Of a stretch of DNA of 64,000 bases, positions 20,057 to 28,364 are shown one piece after another; positions within the stretch are counted from its first letter, which is position 1; the number at the start of each line of letters is the position of its first letter. A model generated the notes under the pieces. That model ran no database searches. It worked only from the letters and a program-made list of their open reading frames with translations, and was not told the origin of the DNA. This DNA comes from Acidobacteriota bacterium (GTDB lineage: Bacteria > Acidobacteriota > Polarisedimenticolia > J045): contig JALOKP010000017.1 of the NCBI GenBank assembly GCA_025456425.1, forward strand, positions 2,128 to 66,127. Direction: 5' to 3'. The position numbers and the translations under genes were made by a program.

Positions 20057-20361
20057 GGCGTCCCCCCGCGGGCCAGCTCGCGCACCCGGAAGGCAAAGCG
20101 CCCGTCGACCACGACGAGATCGCCGATGGCGACCGGCCGGTCCTGGACGAACAGCGTGACGGTGTCGTCGCCGTCGAGGCCGACCGGCACGGCGTCGCCG
20201 GCCCGCAGCCCGAGCACGCGCTCGAGGCTCCAGACCTGGCGGCCCAGCCGCACCTCGAGCGGCAGCTCGATCCGATCGAACGGCGAGCCGTCGGCGCCCG
20301 GCGCCGCGTCGGCCGCCGCCCCGCCCGGGACCTCGACGTCGTGCAGGTCGTGCAGGTTCAC
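20053..20361 (-). CDS. fliN: Flagellar motor switch protein FliN (SpoA domain)
   Basis: IELPLEVRLG, VLGLRAGD and AIGDLVVVDGRFAFRV. Confidence 0.85.
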   Translation of the reverse strand: MNLHDLHDVEVPGGAAADAAPGADGSPFDRIELPLEVRLGRQVWSLERVLGLRAGDAVPVGLDGDDTVTLFVQDRPVAIGDLVVVDGRFAFRVRELARGGTP

Positions 20362-21308
20362 GGTTCCCTCCCCTCCGCGCCGGCCGCGGCCGGCACGAAC
20401 CGGCGGATCTCGAGCACGCGCCGCGTGTCCTGGCGGCGCAGCACCCCTTCCGCGAGCAGCGCCCCGTTGAGGCGCAGCCCGACCCCTTCCGGATCGGGCA
20501 GGTCGAGCTGCAGCACGTGGCCGGGGCGCAACCGCTGCAGGTCGGTGACCCGCAGGCTGGCCCCGGCGAGGACCGGCTCGAACGTCACCGGGGCCCGGCG
20601 CAGCGCGTCGAGCAGTTCCGGCGCGGCGTCGCGCGCCGACGGCCGCGGCGCGTCCGACGCGAGCCGGCCCGCCAGGGGCGGCGCCATCAGCAGGCGGCAG
20701 ACCGCCTCGCCCCCGGGCAGCTCGAGCCGGAACGCCGCCGCGGCGAGCATCCCGCCGCGGCGCACGAGCCGGCCGAAGTCCGGTTCGGGGTCGAGCCCGC
20801 CCGGCTGCAGCGGCGCCAGCGCGGAGCGCTCGCCGAGCGCGCGGGCGAGCCGCTGGAAGGCCTCTTCCAGCAGGCGCGACTCGACCACCGAGAGCGCGCG
20901 CGGCGCGGCCGGCCGCCCCTCGCCCCCCTGCAGCCGATCGACGATCGCCAGCGCCAGCTCGTGCTGGAACGAGATCCCGCCGACCACTTCGCCCGCCTCG
21001 TCGACGAACAGCCCGAGCGGCTCGCCCTGGACCAGCGTCGCCAGGACCGTTCCCGCCGGCTGCTGGATCAGCCCGGTGAACTCCGCGCGGAGGGGCGCGC
21101 TCGCGGCGAGGATCGTCGTGAACGCGCTGGCGACCTCGCCGGCCAGCCTCTCGCAGGCGGCGTGGACGAGCGAGAGCCGCTCCCCGGCCAGCAGCAGCGG
21201 CGCCCTCAGGTCGTACGGGACCGCGTCGGAACCGGCCGGGCCGGCCTCTTCGGCCCCGAAGGATCGAAGCAGGGAGTCGACCTCGGCCTGGGACAGCAGG
21301 CGGCTCAT
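20358..21308 (-). CDS. fliM: Flagellar motor switch protein FliM
   Basis: N-terminal CheY-binding motif LLSQAEVDSLL, PYDL, IVDRLQGG, LSVVE, and a C-terminal SpoA domain. Confidence 0.88.
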   Translation of the reverse strand: MSRLLSQAEVDSLLRSFGAEEAGPAGSDAVPYDLRAPLLLAGERLSLVHAACERLAGEVASAFTTILAASAPLRAEFTGLIQQPAGTVLATLVQGEPLGLFVDEAGEVVGGISFQHELALAIVDRLQGGEGRPAAPRALSVVESRLLEEAFQRLARALGERSALAPLQPGGLDPEPDFGRLVRRGGMLAAAAFRLELPGGEAVCRLLMAPPLAGRLASDAPRPSARDAAPELLDALRRAPVTFEPVLAGASLRVTDLQRLRPGHVLQLDLPDPEGVGLRLNGALLAEGVLRRQDTRRVLEIRRFVPAAAGAEGREP

Positions 21309-22087
21309 CGCAGCGCCTCCTCCAGGGGGACCGTGAGCCGCTCGCCGACGCGCGCGCGCAGCCGGCTGATGGCGCGGGTGTGGATCTGGCAGACCCGCGA
21401 CTCGGTGACGTCGAGCACGGCGCCGATCTCCTTCAGCGTCAGGCCCCGCTCGTAGTAGAGCGACAGGACCATCCGCTCCCGCTCGGGCAGGTGGTCGATC
21501 TCCTGGGCCAGGACCTCGCGCCGCTCCTTCTCCTGGATCGCGAACAGCGGGCTGGCGCCGGGATCGGCCGGGTCGTTCCCCTCGTCCTCGCCGGCCGGCA
21601 TGTGGCCGAGCCGGACGCCTCGCGCCTGCTGGTAGAGCGCGTGCAGCTCGTCGACCGAGAGCCCCAGCTCGGACGCGATCTCCTCGTCCTCGGCGGGGCG
21701 CCGCGTGCGGTGCTCGACCGCGACGATCGCGGTCTCGAGCCGGCGCGCGGCGCGGCGCAGCGAACGGGGGGCCCAGTCGCGGCAGCGCACGCCGTCGAGG
21801 ATCGCGCCGCGGATCCGCGCCTCGGCGTAGGTCTTGAACTGCACGCCGTGCGACGGGTCGAAGCGGTCGATCGCCTCCATCAGCCCCAGGATCCCGTCTC
21901 CGACCAGGTCGTCGAAGTCGACCGGGCCGGCCAGCCGCGAGCCGATCCGGTGGGCGAGGTACTTCACCAGCCCGGTGTGCCCGACGAGCAGGCGCTCGCG
22001 GGCGGCAGAACCGGGAACCCGGGCCGCGGCCGCCCATTCGACCGTCGGGTCGACGAGCGGGGCGTCGGTGTGCGAGGCGCCGCGCAT
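21305..22087 (-). CDS. fliA: RNA polymerase sigma28 FliA/WhiG
   Basis: GILGLMEAIDRFDP, FKTYAEARIRGAILD, DWAPRS and LTLKEIGAVLDVTESRVCQIH. The ATG is coupled to the flhG stop; 22126 is an alternative start. Confidence 0.94.
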   Translation of the reverse strand: MRGASHTDAPLVDPTVEWAAAARVPGSAARERLLVGHTGLVKYLAHRIGSRLAGPVDFDDLVGDGILGLMEAIDRFDPSHGVQFKTYAEARIRGAILDGVRCRDWAPRSLRRAARRLETAIVAVEHRTRRPAEDEEIASELGLSVDELHALYQQARGVRLGHMPAGEDEGNDPADPGASPLFAIQEKERREVLAQEIDHLPERERMVLSLYYERGLTLKEIGAVLDVTESRVCQIHTRAISRLRARVGERLTVPLEEALR

Positions 22088-22935
22088 CAGTGCTGGAGTC
22101 CCGGGTGCGTTGCGTTCCCGTCCCATCGTGGCGACGCTCCGGAGAGGCTGCGCGCGCGGGCGCGCGCGACGACCTTGGCGGCCAACCGCTCGAGCGAGCG
22201 ACTGGCGGGGGCGAGGGGCTGTTCGATCACGAGCGCGGCCTGGCGGCGCGCGGCGTCGGCGACCGCAGGGTCCTTGAGGACGAAGCCGTCGAAGTCGATC
22301 CCGCGGCCCAGGAACTGGCTGGCCGCGGCGACCAGGCGCCGGTGGACGCGGCGGGCCTCGTCCTCGTCGTCGGCGCCGTTGACGACGAGGCCGATCTCCT
22401 GGCCCGGATCGCGCCGCAGCGCGACCTTCAGCGCGGCGTAGGCGTCGACCAGCGCGGCCGGCTCGGGCCAGGTCACGAGCAGCGTGCGGTCCGCCAGCAT
22501 CAGCATCCGGGAGACCTGGTCGCCGATCCCGGCCGCGGTGTCGATCAGCAGCACGTCGCAGCACTCGCCGACCGCGCGCAGCCCCTCGACGAAGTGCAGC
22601 ATCTCCTCGGGCGGCAGGCTGGCCAGCTCGGGGATCCCGGAGCCGGCGGGGATCAGGCGGATCCCGCCGGGCCCCTCGATCGCCAGCTCGGTCAGCGGGA
22701 CGCGCTCGCGGAAGAAGTGCTCGATCGTGCGGGGCGGAGCGAGACCGAGCAGCACGTCGGCGTTGGCCAGCGAGAGGTCGGCGTCGAGCAGCGTCGTCGC
22801 CAGGCCGTTCCGGGCCAGCGCGATCGCCAGGTTGACCGCGACGAAGGTCTTGCCGACACCCCCCTTGCCGGAGGTGACGGCCAGCACCAGCGCGCGGCGC
22901 GCGCGGCGCGGCGGGGGGGCGGCGCGGTCGCTCAT
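22087..22935 (-). CDS. flhG: MinD-like ATPase FlhG/FleN
   Basis: TSGKGGVGKT, DADLSLAN, IDTAAGI and PEPAALVDAYAALK. Located between flhF and fliA. Confidence 0.92.
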   Translation of the reverse strand: MSDRAAPPPRRARRALVLAVTSGKGGVGKTFVAVNLAIALARNGLATTLLDADLSLANADVLLGLAPPRTIEHFFRERVPLTELAIEGPGGIRLIPAGSGIPELASLPPEEMLHFVEGLRAVGECCDVLLIDTAAGIGDQVSRMLMLADRTLLVTWPEPAALVDAYAALKVALRRDPGQEIGLVVNGADDEDEARRVHRRLVAAASQFLGRGIDFDGFVLKDPAVADAARRQAALVIEQPLAPASRSLERLAAKVVARARARSLSGASPRWDGNATHPGLQH

Positions 22936-23945
22936 CGCCCGGTCCCCGCGCCGCGCCAGGGGGCGGCCGGCTCGCCCGGCAGCGGCACGGCCCACGCCGC
23001 GAGGCGGCGCGGATCCGCGATCTCGAGGTCGTCCGGGACGTCGGGGCCGGTCCCGAGGTGGCGCAGCGGCAGTCCGGCCCGCGCCAGCGCGGTCACCAGG
23101 CCGCCCGGCCGCACGGCCTCGTCGATCCGCGTCGCGCCCAGCGCACCGGGGCGCAGCGGGGCGAAGCGTTTGACGCTCTCGGTCAGCGAGTCGGCGTCGC
23201 GGTCGGCCGCCAGCAGCAGCTCGATCTCCTCGCGCCGCACGCCCGCCAGCAGACCGGCGAGCCCCTCCATCGCGGCCCGGTCGCCGCGCGGGATCCCCGG
23301 CGTGTCGAGCATCAGGAGCGCGCCGCGGCCGGCGCGCTCGCGCGCCCGCTCCAGGTCGCGCCGCTCGCGGACCGCGACGAAGGGCGCGCCGAGGATCCGT
23401 GCGAACGCCTCCATCTGCTCCGCGCCGCCGAGACGCCGGCCGTCGGCCGAGGCCAGGACCACGGGGTGCTCGCCGCGGCAGATCTCGCGCGCGGCGAGCT
23501 TGGCCAGCGTCGTCGTCTTGCCCACGCCGGGGGGGCCGACCAGCGCCAGCACCGCGGGGGCGGGGGCGGGACCGGCCGGCAGCCAGAGCGCGACCAGCCC
23601 GCGCGCGTACGAGAGCGCGGCGATCCGGTCTTCGAGCTGCTCCGCGTCGAGGTTGTGCCGGGCGGCGGCCGCGATCCGGGCAGCGAACGGGAGCGAGAAC
23701 CCCCACGCGACGAGGTCGTCGCGCAGCCGCTCGGCGGCGGCGGGGGGCGCGCCCAGTTCCGCCGCCAGGACCGGTGCCGCGGGCGCCGCGGCGCCCCACG
23801 TCCCCGGCCGTTCCGCGGCCGCGACGACCTCGACGCCGCCGGCGCCGCGGCGCGTCTCGAGCACCGCGGCCCCGGGGCCGAACTGCTCGCGCACCTGCGC
23901 CAGCGCCTCGGCCGCCGTCTTCCCGAAGAAGGTCCGCAGGATCAT
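22932..23945 (-). CDS. flhF: SRP-family GTPase FlhF
   Basis: N-terminal EALAQVREQFGPGA.VL, GPPGVGKTTTLAKLAA, DTPG, TRIDE and GTGPDVPDDL. Confidence 0.9.
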   Translation of the reverse strand: MILRTFFGKTAAEALAQVREQFGPGAAVLETRRGAGGVEVVAAAERPGTWGAAAPAAPVLAAELGAPPAAAERLRDDLVAWGFSLPFAARIAAAARHNLDAEQLEDRIAALSYARGLVALWLPAGPAPAPAVLALVGPPGVGKTTTLAKLAAREICRGEHPVVLASADGRRLGGAEQMEAFARILGAPFVAVRERRDLERARERAGRGALLMLDTPGIPRGDRAAMEGLAGLLAGVRREEIELLLAADRDADSLTESVKRFAPLRPGALGATRIDEAVRPGGLVTALARAGLPLRHLGTGPDVPDDLEIADPRRLAAWAVPLPGEPAAPWRGAGTGR

Positions 23946-23969
23946 CTCAGCTCACCGCTTCCGGCGCGC

Positions 23970-24257
23970 TCAGCCACGGTCCTGTCCCAACCGCGTCAGG
24001 CGCAACGCGAGCTGCCCCCGGACCTCGACGACCTCCCCGGCCCCGATCACCGCTCCGTCGGCGAGCAGCCGGCAGGGCTCGCCGACCGGCGTCGTCAGCG
24101 GCACCAGCTGGCCGGGCGCCAGCTCGCGCAGCGCGGCGAGGCGCGCGCGCCCGGTGGCGATCCGCGCCGAGAGCGCGATCGGCAGCGCGGCAAGCTCGGG
24201 GCGCAGCAGCCCCGCGTCCGGCGTCCCTCCCGAGCGTCCGTCCCTCGTCCCGGCCAT
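23970..24257 (-). CDS. Second FliN/SpoA-domain protein
   Basis: LAPGQLVPL..GEPCRL and IGAGEVVEVRGQLALRLTRL. Confidence 0.8.
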   Translation of the reverse strand: MAGTRDGRSGGTPDAGLLRPELAALPIALSARIATGRARLAALRELAPGQLVPLTTPVGEPCRLLADGAVIGAGEVVEVRGQLALRLTRLGQDRG

Positions 24258-24571: not shown

Positions 24572-25660
24572 GTGGACCGGACCCCGCCCAGCGTTCTCGC
24601 GCGCATGCTGCGCGGCCACGCCGGCGCGCTCGCGGGTCAGATGCGGGAATCGCTCGAAGCGCTGGTCGGCCGCTCGGTCCAGCTGGAGCGCCTGCAGGCC
24701 GATCACCCCGAGCTACCGCGGCTCTTCGGCCAGCGCGAGCTGTTCCTGTTCCCGTTCGCCGACGGGGACGGCCGCGCGCTGCCGACATTCCTGGCACTCG
24801 ACCGGCCCGCGGCGGTGGCGACGGGCGCGGCTTTCGGGCTGATGAACACCGGCGGGGTCCGCGAGGCGGCCGACCCCGGCGAGCTGCCGGAGCCGCTGCT
24901 CGGCGCGATCCGCGAGGTCGCCGGGATCCTCGGCGGCGCCGCCCGCCGGATGGTCCGCGCGCGGGGCACGGACAGGACGTGCGGCTTCGGTTGCGGGCAC
25001 GAGCTGCGCCGGGTCACGGCGGGCGCCTGGCCGGCGATCGTCGGGGAGATCGACCACGGCGTGCGGTGGGACCTGCTCGGCTTCCGGCTGCGGATCGACG
25101 GGGAGCCGGCGGGCGCGATCCTGCTGGGCTCGAGCGAGCGCTGGGAAGGCCCGCTCGAGACCGATCTCGACGAGGACGCCGACACGGCCGAGGTCTTCGT
25201 CGAGGAGCCGACGCCCGGCAGCGACGAGTACGCCGGAACGGCCGCCGCGCCCGCGCCGTTTCCCGCGAACGCCGAGGCGGCCGGCCCGCCGCCGCCGATC
25301 CCGCAGGGGATTCGGGTGCAGGTCGCTGGGGATCCCAAGGACCGCGCAACGGCCGCGCTGCGAACGGCGCTCGCCGAGGCCGGCTGCCACGTCCTGCCGG
25401 CCTACTCCGCGGGTGGCGCCGGGCCGCAGCCGAGCGTGCTGTTCGTCTTCAGCCGCTCCCCGATCGACCTGAGGATGCGGCTGGCCGCGTCGCTCGCGAA
25501 GCGCCGGGCGGGGCTGATCGTCGCCTGCTCGGACCGCCCCACGGCCGACCTGGTCCGGGCCGCGCACGCCGGCACGGCAGACTCGTTCCTCGTCCTGCCC
25601 GCGGACAGGCTGCGGCTGCAACGCCTTTTCCAGCGCTTTGCAGAGCTAGCGCCAGCCTGA
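24572..25660 (+). CDS. Hypothetical protein: CheC/FliY-like N-terminal domain, acidic linker, degenerate receiver-like C-terminal domain
   Basis: ESLEALVGRSV, A.FGLM and AIREVAGILGG resemble the CheC fold. VRAAHAGTADSFLVLP resembles the end of a receiver domain. Confidence 0.55.
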   Translation: MDRTPPSVLARMLRGHAGALAGQMRESLEALVGRSVQLERLQADHPELPRLFGQRELFLFPFADGDGRALPTFLALDRPAAVATGAAFGLMNTGGVREAADPGELPEPLLGAIREVAGILGGAARRMVRARGTDRTCGFGCGHELRRVTAGAWPAIVGEIDHGVRWDLLGFRLRIDGEPAGAILLGSSERWEGPLETDLDEDADTAEVFVEEPTPGSDEYAGTAAAPAPFPANAEAAGPPPPIPQGIRVQVAGDPKDRATAALRTALAEAGCHVLPAYSAGGAGPQPSVLFVFSRSPIDLRMRLAASLAKRRAGLIVACSDRPTADLVRAAHAGTADSFLVLPADRLRLQRLFQRFAELAPA

Positions 25661-25691
25661 CGGACGCCCGGAAACGGGCGCCAGGGCCGGG

Positions 25692-25727
25692 AAAACGCGG
25701 GGGGGCGGCCGATCAGCCGCCCCCTCG
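25692..25727 (-). terminator. Intrinsic terminator downstream of the histone gene
   Basis: Perfect 9-bp stem GGGGGCGGC/GCCGCCCCC with a 6-nt loop, followed by ...GCGTTTT on the minus strand. Confidence 0.65.
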
Positions 25728-25737
25728 GGACTCCACC

Positions 25738-25974
25738 TCAGACGTAGAAGTCGTAGGGGCGGATCGTCTTGCGGCCGTTGGCCTGGGCGAGCTTCGCAGC
25801 CCGCACACAGAGGTCGTACAGCACCTTGTTCAGCGCCTCGGGGGCGTCGGACGCCACGTTCATCCCGTGGTCGCGGAGGGCGCCCTTGACCTTGCTCATG
25901 ACGAGCAGCATCTCGACGGCCTTCGCCTTGCCGGCCTTCGGCGCGGCGGTCTTCTTGGCAGCCTTCTTTGCCAT
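25738..25974 (-). CDS. Bacterial histone-fold protein with a Lys/Ala-rich N-terminal tail (78 aa)
   Basis: LLVMSKVK...MNVASDAPEALNKVLYDLCVRAAKLAQANGRKTIRPYDF matches the Bd0055/HMf-like histone-fold pattern with the RKT-x4-D signature. Strong AGAGGAG RBS. Confidence 0.88.
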   Translation of the reverse strand: MAKKAAKKTAAPKAGKAKAVEMLLVMSKVKGALRDHGMNVASDAPEALNKVLYDLCVRAAKLAQANGRKTIRPYDFYV

Positions 25975-26180
25975 GTTCTCTGGCTCCTCTCTTTCGTCGA
26001 TCCGGCGGCACGTCGCGCGCCGCACGCGCGAAAGGACGGGCTATAGGTAGCATTACCGGTGCGGGAGATTCAAGCGGGAAACGCGTTTTTTTTGGGTCTG
26101 GCGGCGGTTTTCTGCCCTTCGGCGCCGGGCCCCCGCGGCGCGCACCGCGGTTTCGGGCTAGCATTCCGGCGCCTGCCACC

Positions 26181-28364
26181 ATGTCGAAGCGTCGTTCCAG
26201 CGCAGCAACAGAGGGGTCCCCGCAGCCCGTTCCGGCCGCGCCGCCGTCGCTTTCCCCGCCGTTTCCCTCCGGCAAGGCGCTGCTCGCGATCGCCGCACTG
26301 GCCTTCTTCGCCTACCTGATGCTCCCCCCCAAGCCGATCATCAGCGACGCGGTGCGGGCCGTGACGCTGAACCCGGTCGTCCAGGAGAAGCCGCTCTCCG
26401 CGGTCTTTTCCAGCGATTTCTGGGGGGCTCCGGCCGACGCCTCCTACGGCACGCGGTCCTACCGCCCGCTCGTCGCCCTGACCTACGCGATCGAGGCGCG
26501 CGCGCTGGGCAACGCGCCGCAGGTCTACCACGTCACCGACATGCTGCTGCACGCCGGGACCGCGGTGCTGGTCACGCTGCTGGCCGCTCTGCTGCTGGCG
26601 GGCAGCCCGTGGGCGCTCGCGGCGGGCGCGCTGTTCGCGGTTCACCCGGTGGCGACCGAGGCGGTCGCGTCGATCGTCGGGCGCGCCGACATCATGGCCG
26701 CGGCGGCGCTGCTCGGGGCGCTGATCCTGCACCTGCTCGCCGGGAGCAGGGCCTCACCGTGGGCCTGGGAAGCGGGGGCGCTGGCGCTGCTCGGCGCCGG
26801 GCTGCTCTGCAAGGAGTACGCCGTCGCGTTCCCGTTCATCCTGGCGGCCTGCGACCTGGCGTTCCGCGCCTGCGGCCGCAGCTCGCGGGCCGACGAGCGG
26901 CGGCAGCCCGTGGTCCTCGGCCTGGCGCTGGGGCTGCTGGTGGGCTACCTCGCGCTGCGCTACGCGCTGATCGGGGCCCTGGGCGGCGTGCCGATGCTGG
27001 GCGACGGCGATCAGCCGCTGTACGACCAGCCGCTCGGCGTGAGGCTGGCGACCGCCCTCTGGCTGGTCGTCGTCTCGGCGCGCTTCATGGTCCTCCCCGT
27101 CGCCCACGACTACTTCTACGGCGCGGGAACGATCGCAATCGTGAAGGGGTTCCTCGAGCCGCGCGCGCTGGCCGGGATCGTGCTGATCGGCCTGCTCGTG
27201 GCGTGGGCCGTGCGCTCGATCGCGCGGCGGATGGACCCGGTCCCGGCGCTCGCCGTCGCGCTCTTCCTGCTGCCGCTCGCGCCCTCGCTCAACACCGTGA
27301 GCGTCGCCGGCGTGCTCTACGCCGAGCGCTTCCTCTACCTGCCGCTGGCCGGCTTCGCGCTGGGCGTGGGCTGGCTGCTGACGCGCTACGCGACCGGGCC
27401 GGCGGGCGAGCGCGCCGGCCGGATCGCGATGGCGGGAGCGCTCCTGGTCTGCCTGGTGCTGACGATGAACCGCGTCGGCGACTGGCGCTCGCAGGAGGCG
27501 CTGGCGCGGGCCTCGCTGCGCTGGTACCCGGAGAACTCCCGGGCCTGGTACGAGGTCGGGCTGGCCCACGGGCAGCGGGCGCAGGAGCTGGAGGCGAAGG
27601 GACAGGCCGAGGCCGCGCGCGCCGAACACACCGCCGCGGCGGAGGCGATCCGGCGGTCGCTCGCGGTGGAGAACCGCGCGGCGCAGATCTGGCGCGCGTT
27701 GGCGCTGGCGGAGAAGCGCCTCGGGCGCTACGGCGAGTCGGTCAAGGCCTACCGCGAGGCGATTCGCAACGCGCCGACCGAGATCGGGATGCTCTACGCC
27801 GGGCTGGGCGAGGCGGAGCTGGAGGACGGCCAGTTCGAGGCCGCGGTGCGCTCGCTGGCACGGGCGCACGAGCTGATGCCGCGAGAACCGGGCATCGCGG
27901 CGCTGCAGGCGCGGGCCCAGGTGCGGCTGGCGCAGAAGCGGCTGCTCGAGGGACACGCCGAGGAGGCGGTCGACCTGGCGCAGCGCGGGCTCGACAGCGG
28001 CGCGCTGTCGGCCGAGGGGACCTGGACCGCGGGCGAGGTCTTCGCCCGGGCCGGGCATCCGGAATCGGCGGCCGCCGCGTTCCGACAGGCGGCGGCCCGC
28101 GACCCGAACGTGCTGCGCAGCCGGTTCGGCGCCGCGATGCAGCTCGACCAGGCGGGGAAGCACGAGGAAGCGGCAGCCGCGTTCGCGGCGCTGCTGGTGG
28201 CCGATCCCGACCACGTCCCAACGCTCTTCAACCTCGCGCGCAGCCTCGTGCTGCTGCAACGGCCGGCCGAGGCGGTCCCGCTGCTCGAGCGCGGACTGGC
28301 GCTGAAGGAGGACGAGCGGGCGCGGGCGCTGCTGGCGGACGCGCGGCGACAGGCCGCTCGCTGA
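26181..28364 (+). CDS. TMTC-like (GT-C) membrane glycosyltransferase with C-terminal TPR repeats
   Basis: DFWG, SYRPL, LFAVHPV.TEAVASIVGRAD, CKE and AERFLYLP, followed by multiple TPR helices. Confidence 0.88.
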   Translation: MSKRRSSAATEGSPQPVPAAPPSLSPPFPSGKALLAIAALAFFAYLMLPPKPIISDAVRAVTLNPVVQEKPLSAVFSSDFWGAPADASYGTRSYRPLVALTYAIEARALGNAPQVYHVTDMLLHAGTAVLVTLLAALLLAGSPWALAAGALFAVHPVATEAVASIVGRADIMAAAALLGALILHLLAGSRASPWAWEAGALALLGAGLLCKEYAVAFPFILAACDLAFRACGRSSRADERRQPVVLGLALGLLVGYLALRYALIGALGGVPMLGDGDQPLYDQPLGVRLATALWLVVVSARFMVLPVAHDYFYGAGTIAIVKGFLEPRALAGIVLIGLLVAWAVRSIARRMDPVPALAVALFLLPLAPSLNTVSVAGVLYAERFLYLPLAGFALGVGWLLTRYATGPAGERAGRIAMAGALLVCLVLTMNRVGDWRSQEALARASLRWYPENSRAWYEVGLAHGQRAQELEAKGQAEAARAEHTAAAEAIRRSLAVENRAAQIWRALALAEKRLGRYGESVKAYREAIRNAPTEIGMLYAGLGEAELEDGQFEAAVRSLARAHELMPREPGIAALQARAQVRLAQKRLLEGHAEEAVDLAQRGLDSGALSAEGTWTAGEVFARAGHPESAAAAFRQAAARDPNVLRSRFGAAMQLDQAGKHEEAAAAFAALLVADPDHVPTLFNLARSLVLLQRPAEAVPLLERGLALKEDERARALLADARRQAAR

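Follow-up and report, generated by a model that had tools for sequence, protein, structure and literature searches.

A single-copy gene for a lysine-tailed, alpha3-truncated bacterial histone, apparently of the face-to-face type, in an Acidobacteriota genome

A 64,000-nt stretch (the window; all coordinates below are positions in it) of contig JALOKP010000017.1, from an Acidobacteriota metagenome-assembled genome (MAG) of 4.28 Mb (252 contigs, 85% complete, 72.9% GC), carries on its minus strand a 78-codon open reading frame (ORF) that is a real gene for a true bacterial histone of the alpha3-truncated type. The product joins a lysine- and alanine-rich N-terminal tail of 20 residues to a histone-fold core of 58 residues, and by family profile and residue signature it appears to be a face-to-face (FtF) histone rather than one of the type of Bd0055, the Bdellovibrio histone also called HBb. 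Tailed FtF-type bacterial histones are already described, and the protein belongs among them; the initial annotation of this DNA, which proposed a tailed-histone chromatin system in a poorly studied lineage, overstated its novelty. What the gene adds is a lineage. The class to which the window's genome and the isolate "Acidobacteria bacterium Mor1" both belong (Acidobacteriota subdivision 22 at NCBI) joins the histone-bearing lineages, and there the gene is present in RNA libraries of several studies.

Homology, fold and layout of the gene

The case for the gene rests on homology, because open frames are cheap in DNA of 72.9% GC: one of 1318 residues on the plus strand crosses the histone locus. 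The 78-residue sequence quoted in the initial annotation matches exactly the translation of 25738-25974 (minus strand; ATG at 25974, TGA at 25738-25740). A database search with this protein found 248 homologous proteins at E<=1e-3, and 510 homologous loci were confirmed in species genomes. Compared with PDB sequences by phmmer, it matched HLp of Leptospira perolatii (9qt0) at 2.1e-7 and two constructs of HBb (8cmp, 8fvx) at 3e-7 to 4e-7, the next matches being archaeal HTkC (0.027) and HMfB (0.47). The motif R68-K69-T70-x4-D75, which holds the RD clamp and the L2 motif, is present, and in an alignment of the 121 closest homologues N66, G67, R68, K69, T70, R72 and D75 are invariant.

A model built with AlphaFold2 (AF2) on the 121 homologues has a mean pLDDT of 81, with 89-95 in the core blocks and values below 50 in residues 1-13, as for a disordered tail. 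It shows the helix-loop-helix-loop-helix order and long central helix of the histone fold, with helices at 26-34 and 44-65 and a single turn at 73-75. The best eight Foldseek matches of the model are prokaryotic histones; HLp superposes with an rmsd (root-mean-square deviation) of 0.7 Å (TMt 0.94, identity 39-40%), HBb and HTkC with 1.3-1.4 Å, and HMfB with 2.6 Å (probability 1.00). The kinship with Bd0055/HBb that was first proposed is thus borne out by both sequence and structure matches. Schwab et al. (2024, PMC11390915) define alpha3-truncated histones by an alpha3 no longer than 3-4 residues; alpha3 in the model is the helix at 73-75, and the chain ends 3 residues past D75. That one-turn alpha3, together with the closer fit to HLp (0.7 Å) than to HMfB (2.6 Å), led us to reject a nucleosomal histone forming HMfB-type hypernucleosomes.

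Curated profiles give the assignment less help. The search that had been suggested as a check, against the Pfam families DUF1931 and CBFD_NFYB_HMF, matched both below cut-off (19.7 vs 21.8 bits and 16.9 vs 21.4 bits), and the NCBIfam model archaea_histone likewise stayed under its cut-off (21.8 vs 50 bits); taken by themselves these scores speak against a histone. They also explain why relatives are labelled "hypothetical protein" in NCBI records. The expectation that annotation pipelines would use that label was correct there and wrong for JGI, where the label is "histone H3/H4".

The features of the locus are as follows.

25738-25974, minus strand: histone gene, 78 codons plus TGA, identified by translation and homologues; single copy in the genome.
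25915-25974, minus strand: part that encodes the tail, with 7 Lys, 8 Ala and nothing acidic in residues 1-20, identified by composition, by pLDDT below 50 in residues 1-13, and by RNA-library contigs.
25741-25914, minus strand: alpha3-truncated histone-fold core, residues 21-78, with helices 26-34 and 44-65 and one turn at 73-75 in the AF2 model.
25984-25991, minus strand: ribosome-binding site (RBS) GAGAGGAG, read from the sequence, with the ATG 9 nt downstream.
25692-25724, minus strand: putative terminator-like hairpin (10-bp stem, loop GAUC) followed by UUUU, judged from its fold.
26040-26045, minus strand: tentative -10-like hexamer TATAGC (TATAAG in two relatives), a weak candidate.
26022-26029, minus strand: possible mRNA 5' end, 48-55 nt upstream of the ATG, faintly hinted at by RNA-library contigs of four studies that stop there.

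Both genes flanking the histone gene, a 362-codon ORF that ends at 25660 and the gene for a 727-residue TPR protein that starts at 26181, lie on the plus strand, so that the histone gene is monocistronic by layout. This agrees with the initial annotation, as does its strong RBS (AGGAG at 25984-25988, 9 nt from the ATG); the terminator that it also assigned to the gene is putative. A G+C hairpin at 25701-25724, with UUUU at 25692-25695, begins 14 nt past the histone stop codon, but a consensus terminator scan did not call it and the 101-nt 3' stretch that contains it folds no better than its shuffles (z = -1.3), for which reasons we offer it only as terminator-like. The sole terminator-like site that the scan called is on the plus strand, inside the coding sequence, and, at 1 found against 0.9 expected by chance, was ignored. 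A promoter scan returned 0 sites. The hexamer TTGAAT at 26068-26073 was rejected as a -35 box, being 22 nt from the -10-like hexamer and so too far for sigma-70. Between the two divergent genes, some 60 nt upstream of the RNA-contig ends, the plus strand has a run of eight T (eight A on the histone strand) at 26087-26094, which could be an upstream promoter element.

Sequence words from 25400-26400 occur in 24 listed runs of 17 studies, 11 recorded as RNA, with 0.14-0.33 of the words present in each. Contigs were compared from four metatranscriptomic runs of four studies, and in all four a contig covers the histone gene: 25651-26029 (1 difference), 25700-26024 (4 differences, 2 gaps), 25774-26023 and 25870-26022 (0 differences each). 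Every one of these contigs ends at 26022-26029 with no loose end and includes the tail-coding part and 48-55 nt upstream of it. Cover is missing at 26046-26400 in all four runs and at 25400-25650 in three, which was not counted as evidence. These contigs speak to presence, not to strand, ends or level, and DNA carry-over is possible, which counts against taking them as proof of transcription; the depths in run X5 (12.7 on the histone gene vs 2.1 on a neighbour) cannot rank genes. That the histone is an abundant protein, as first suggested, is hinted at by the assembled RNA-library contigs alone.

The N-terminal tail: start site, frequency and conservation

The tail comprises 20 residues, among them 7 Lys, 8 Ala, one Thr and no acidic residue (K+R fraction 0.35), and by sequence count it carries a charge of +7, with about +3 net in the core. 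Windows this rich in lysine are scarce, numbering only 13 in all six-frame ORFs of the 72.9% GC genome. Hu et al. (2025, PMC12701072) used Shine-Dalgarno evidence to reject a longer annotation of HLp and judged the form of 63 residues to be the right one, and on that account a check of the start site mattered here.

From the sequence, the tail appears to be translated from the ATG at 25974. A start at the internal Met22 (in the string MLLVM), named in the initial annotation as the outcome that would remove the tail, would draw on an ATG codon whose Met is found in 120 of the 121 homologues, on a weak AAGG 8 nt upstream of it, on the HLp precedent (PMC12701072), and on tail-less forms in other Acidobacteriota classes (L094, L096, L098) that begin just before the same motif. 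The first ATG has the much stronger AGGAG, and a GGAG-type site 6-9 nt before an MA[KR]K start recurs in 6/6 tailed Acidobacteriota loci, where the internal Met is preceded by AAGG at best; in L089 to L092 nothing resembling a Shine-Dalgarno site lies at a workable distance before that Met. In-frame lysine-rich composition and the Met-Ala-Lys start are kept through the 121 sequences, in which M1, A2 and K3 are nearly invariant (107/121 begin Met-Ala-Lys), and the RNA-library contigs reach 48-55 nt past the first ATG. The open frame of the Mor1 locus (L091) begins just 4 codons upstream of the tail start. An internal start, leaving no tail in the cell, is therefore scarcely credible, and the proposed lysine-rich, disordered and translated tail withstands the check.

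Comparison with a genome of the same genus gives 11 DNA differences in the histone gene, 10 of them at third codon positions, distributed as 2 synonymous and 1 non-synonymous in the tail and 8 synonymous and 0 non-synonymous in the core. Comparisons of this kind with kin yield 2, 9 and 11 differences, too few for dN/dS. Sixty apparent upstream differences to L003 were discarded as a one-base offset rather than divergence.

The tail had been set off against the tail-less Bd0055 and HMf, but by its homologues it is no unusual feature. All 121 of the closest carry a tail of 10-46 residues (median 23) before the core; the median K+R fraction is 0.48, and acidic residues number just 11 over the whole set of tails. 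With 7 Lys in its 20 residues, the tail in the window lies at the modest end. Since the query of that search included the tail, it could favour tailed matches. A search with the core only, exhaustive over 1.84 billion cluster representatives at E<=1e-3, gave 110 matches, 41 with two matched stretches (most of them doublet histones of 114-150 residues) and 69 with one. Among these 69 single-stretch representatives, 19 have no extension (<=5 residues), 9 have 6-9 residues and 41 have at least 10, the extension being a basic tail in 27 of the 41 (27/69 overall). The window's own class has the tailed form in 6/6 loci; other Acidobacteriota classes have a basic tail in 0/4 assessable loci, a fifth being truncated where its contig stops. 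Schwab et al. (2024, PMC11390915) describe positively charged tails as common in bacterial FtF histones, and Hocher et al. (2023, PMC10627809) describe most bacterial singlets as having no long tails; the counts from the core-only search fit both statements. In this subfamily the tail is the rule, not the exception.

The description of the tail as eukaryote-like stands for charge and disorder and falls for sequence, as nothing is conserved beyond Met-Ala-Lys. Eukaryotic tails are conserved in sequence, are modified at specific sites and are read site by site, whereas the subfamily studied here keeps composition only: no column of the 121-sequence alignment is conserved in the tail after residue 3, which argues against a reading in terms of site-specific modification. 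Length and sequence drift while composition stays, a pattern that we read as that of a non-specific polycationic DNA-binding arm. The composition (K, A, T, S, P) presumably recalls linker-histone-like rather than H3/H4 tails. Lysine- and alanine-rich "H1-like" tails occur on other bacterial nucleoid proteins, where they are disordered, of low complexity in K, A, P and T, and presumed to bind DNA electrostatically; their carriers are HU-type or stand-alone proteins and not histone folds.

Oligomer type and proposed mode of DNA binding

FtF histones are defined by a predicted tetramer and have a conserved logo of R48, N52, R54, T56 and D61, and the bacterial dimers are described as HBb-like and without R48 and N52 (PMC11390915). 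In the HLp tetramer solved by Hu et al. (2025, PMC12701072), the interface sets R49, S52 and N53 against R55, T61 and F63. By the phmmer alignment those six residues correspond to L62, A65, N66, R68, Y74 and F76 of the protein studied here, and four positions of the logo (N52, R54, T56, D61) are kept as N66, R68, T70 and D75. A profile of the 121 homologues scores HLp at 67.3 bits (1e-17) and HBb at 46.9 bits (2.5e-11). For the residue signature, 68 of the 69 single-stretch matches from the core-only search were aligned, one 650-residue fusion being left out. The FtF interface pair, R or K at 62 with N at 66, is found in 66 of these 68 single-domain representatives and the HBb-type pair in none of them, and HBb-type sequences are absent from the 110 representatives of the search. 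The mark of the bacterial dimers, loss of both R48 and N52 with clustering beside HBb, is not seen in the window's protein, as N66 is retained. The Bd0055-like core of the initial annotation is consequently right as to relationship, while its type, by profile and signature, would be FtF.

The fifth position of the logo, the interface arginine (R48 of the logo, R49 of HLp), is Leu62 here. Among the 121 homologues, 91 have R at position 62, 26 have K and 4 have L, and in the 68 core-only representatives the position is R, K or H in every case and never Leu. The four sequences with L62, the window's protein and its three nearest relatives, share further changes on one face of helix 2, W54 to D and Q58 to R beside R/K62 to L, together with D/E57 to V or S and a Y, F or T at position 77; the window's protein has D54, V57, R58, L62 and Y77, V57 and Y77 each being found in 2/121. 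R58 occurs only in the four sequences that carry L62. Positions 54, 58 and 62 are spaced by one helical turn, and 58 and 62 fall within the modelled dimer-dimer contact. The interface arginine seems to have moved up one turn, from 62 to 58. In a tree of 65 core sequences over 59 columns (16 of 81 loci dropped because the motif pattern missed their core) the branch that bears this clade measures 1.25, where end branches have a median of 0.096. The tree is mostly unresolved, with 3 of 56 branches starred, and was used only for branch length; its 11 tail-state changes and its mixing of phyla were not interpreted. The exchange of R62 for L with Q58 for R occurs naturally and could reveal what keeps FtF tetramers together.

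A four-copy ESMFold2 prediction of residues 20-78 returned an ipSAE of 0.85, the best of 3 controls being 0.00, with runs agreeing in at least 97% of contacts and a partner pLDDT of at least 89; the mark applied is reached by 20/30 solved pairs and 1/23 single chains in a calibration from which this job differs. The scored chain is predicted to form a handshake with one mate through low-error contacts along helix 1, helix 2 and the L1/L2 loops. The handshake dimer, whose absence from models had been set as grounds for giving up the histone reading, is thus predicted, although the prediction may reflect resemblance to histones of solved structure. In one chain from the opposite dimer, the scored chain also touches residues 58, 61-62, 65-66, 72, 74 and 77-78, a contact that corresponds to the HLp-type interface.

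Contacts with DNA can be aligned in the same way. In HLp, 52% of the DNA-binding energy is ascribed to S14, K15, K17, K21 and R59 (PMC12701072); they align to S27, K28, K30, R34 and R72 here and all are kept, K28 and R72 being invariant in 121/121 homologues and S27 and K30 kept in 120/121. HLp and HBb are described as abundant proteins that bind DNA non-specifically (PMC11390915, PMC12701072).

The explanation that we favour, and consider probable without being firm, is of a solitary tailed FtF histone gene whose product wraps DNA as a tetramer with polycationic arms. The single gene would be transcribed alone and translated from the ATG at 25974 to give a 20-residue disordered Lys/Ala tail followed by the 58-residue alpha3-truncated fold. 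Two chains would form a histone handshake dimer, and two dimers would meet at the end of helix 2, at loop 2 and at the one-turn helix 3 to make an FtF tetramer like that of HLp, around which DNA would wrap non-specifically. The tail would leave the fold beside the S27-K28 DNA contact, four tails adding about +28 per tetramer, and would work as a polycationic, sequence-independent arm, increasing the affinity for DNA and assisting in its bridging or compaction, in the manner of linker-histone-like Lys/Ala tails.

Several points weigh against this explanation. With the interface arginine replaced by Leu62, tetramer formation is not secure; the four-copy model reports the contacts of one chain only, from which ring closure cannot be read; and its complex score may reflect solved tetramers, those of HLp and HTkC, that the predictor had learned. 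A histone of dimers only, of the Bd0055/HBb kind, in which Leu62 blocks tetramers, DNA is bent or coated by dimers and the tail adds affinity, would account for the loss of R48, one of the residues missing from bacterial dimers (PMC11390915), and for a helix 2 stripe (54/57/58/62) remodelled in this clade only, on its long branch. The single-sequence match to HBb nearly equals that to HLp (3e-7 vs 2e-7), and HBb stands first in Foldseek by E-value. Set against these are the retention of N52 as N66, the 20 bits by which the family profile favours HLp, the 0/68 nearest single-domain representatives with the HBb-type pair, confident model contacts at the HLp-type dimer-dimer interface with 58 and 62 included, and R58, which, one helical turn earlier and only in the four sequences lacking R62, may compensate. 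We therefore regard the dimer as the less probable outcome, though one to be taken seriously, and the FtF tetramer as moderately likely.

Other alternatives concern function. The window's genome has four HU/IHF genes, none with a basic tail, so that the histone, single-copy, need not be the main nucleoid protein, a further point against the favoured explanation; HLp, the one bacterial FtF histone with bench work in the papers searched, is moreover by its authors' judgement (PMC12701072) the short 63-residue form and offers no precedent for a function of the tail, and our literature search found no bench study of a tailed bacterial histone. If HU/IHF cover general nucleoid needs, the histone-fold protein might instead have a specific, non-architectural role, as a transcription factor or as partner of the neighbouring TPR membrane protein, whose divergent gene adjoins the histone gene in 9 related loci; with the histone present in just 21/401 genomes drawn from across the phylum, most Acidobacteriota can do without it. 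Yet all the main non-specific DNA-backbone contacts of HLp are kept, HLp and HBb are non-specific and abundant (PMC11390915, PMC12701072), no extra domain is present, and conservation of a neighbour among kin can be plain synteny, which makes a specific role very improbable. The initial annotation suggested that the tail could undergo acetylation, methylation or phosphorylation; on this reading it would be a regulated platform comparable to the tails of eukaryotic core histones, and the chromatin would be modifiable. The tail is indeed disordered, exposed and lysine-rich with one Thr, and tails persist through the whole subfamily; no position after residue 3 is conserved, however, length ranges over 10-46 residues, and no modifying or reading gene adjoins the histone gene, so that we think such a platform improbable. 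Hardly better placed is the idea of the tail as a switch, in which reversible lysine acylation or Thr phosphorylation of the four tails would tune wrapping or bridging, and the clade with the remodelled stripe would run tail-regulated chromatin beside HU/IHF.

Related histones, distribution and neighbouring genes

The explanation of a tailed FtF histone can be set beside several known systems. HLp (PDB 9QT0-9QT2; PMC12701072) is the best profile match and shares the alpha3-truncated fold, 39-40% identity and an rmsd of 0.7 Å, with interface N53 and R55, the RD clamp and DNA residues S14, K15, K17, K21 and R59 all kept here. It differs in having R49 where the window's protein has Leu62, in its length of 63 residues with about 7 disordered N-terminal ones in place of the 20-residue Lys/Ala tail, and in its host, Leptospira being described as lacking HU (PMC12701072) where the window's genome has four HU/IHF genes. 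The tailed FtF histones of Bacteriovoracia (Halobacteriovorax, Bacteriovorax) and of other bacteria covered by Schwab et al. (PMC11390915) belong to the same subfamily, with 55-61% core identity and a Met-Ala-Lys-Lys start and Lys/Ala/Thr tail before the same core motif. Tails of that type are longer and more charged (median 23 residues, K+R 0.48, vs 20 residues and 0.35 here), and those histones keep W54, D/E57, Q58 and R62, unlike the window's clade with D54, V57, R58 and L62. HBb/Bd0055 of Bdellovibrio bacteriovorus (PDB 8CMP, 8FVX, 9EZZ) is likewise alpha3-truncated, has RKTxxxxD and 35-36% identity, and also lacks the R48 equivalent; it has Asp at the N52 position and no tail, is described as dimeric (PMC11390915), and falls 20 bits below HLp when scored by the family profile. 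What the window's protein has in common with archaeal HMfB and eukaryotic core histones is the fold itself, along with the RD clamp and the L2 RKT motif; they differ in a full-length alpha3, a longer alpha2 and an rmsd of 2.5-2.8 Å; HMfB is tail-less. Cultured Halobacteriovorax or Mor1, whose tailed homologue is 61% identical, would serve equally well for the questions raised here.

The distribution of the histone in Acidobacteriota is patchy. A match at E<=1e-5 is found in the 21/401 sampled genomes with that of the window included, in 4/5 other genomes of the window's family and in 8/15 of one other family, and the same protein occurs at 100% and 99% identity in two uncultured Acidobacteriota MAG records. 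Acidobacteriota are not among the phyla named in the main text of PMC11390915 and PMC12701072, and a literature search on Acidobacteriota and bacterial histones, judged by title and abstract, found nothing relevant. Four long proteins carry a core-like histone domain, namely P0187 (650 residues, domain C-terminal), P0225 (1288 residues), P0186 (226 residues) and P0169 (207 residues), and are rare fused forms of this histone type.

Two further observations concern Lys/Ala-rich sequence. Four more ORFs with Lys/Ala/Thr/Arg repeats were noted in the window's genome (G000) at C99:8399-8671 (minus), C157:41630-41977 (plus), C233:9571-10140 (minus) and C27:13758-14198 (minus), as loci L099-L102. They are among the genome's 13 Lys-rich windows, two of them begin Met-Ala-Val-Arg-Lys-Lys, and none belongs to a Pfam or NCBIfam family; they may be further basic nucleoid proteins, or not genes at all. 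In run X5, record 5 is an 82-nt RNA-library contig that matches only 25936-25968, in the Lys/Ala part of the tail, between flanks that are unlike the window and similarly rich in GCC and AAG, and it probably comes from another Lys/Ala-tail gene of that community.

The 727-residue membrane and TPR protein divergent from the histone gene (26181-28364, plus strand) has counterparts upstream of the histone gene, on the opposite strand, in the 9 related Acidobacteriota loci, at 41-97% identity by tblastn; Pfam names only its TPR repeats (residues 500-720), and no family covers the membrane part at its N-terminus. The 362-residue ORF that converges on the histone gene (24572-25660, plus strand) has no Pfam family either and turns up in just the three closest genomes, where identity is 62-95%. 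A 226-residue neighbouring ORF likewise has no Pfam family. Farther along, a flagellar cluster on the minus strand (20358-24257) encodes by Pfam FlhF (SRP54-type GTPase, 22932-23945) and a FliN-type switch protein (23970-24257), and frames resembling FlhG, FliA and FliM were recognized in it by eye from ORF translations.

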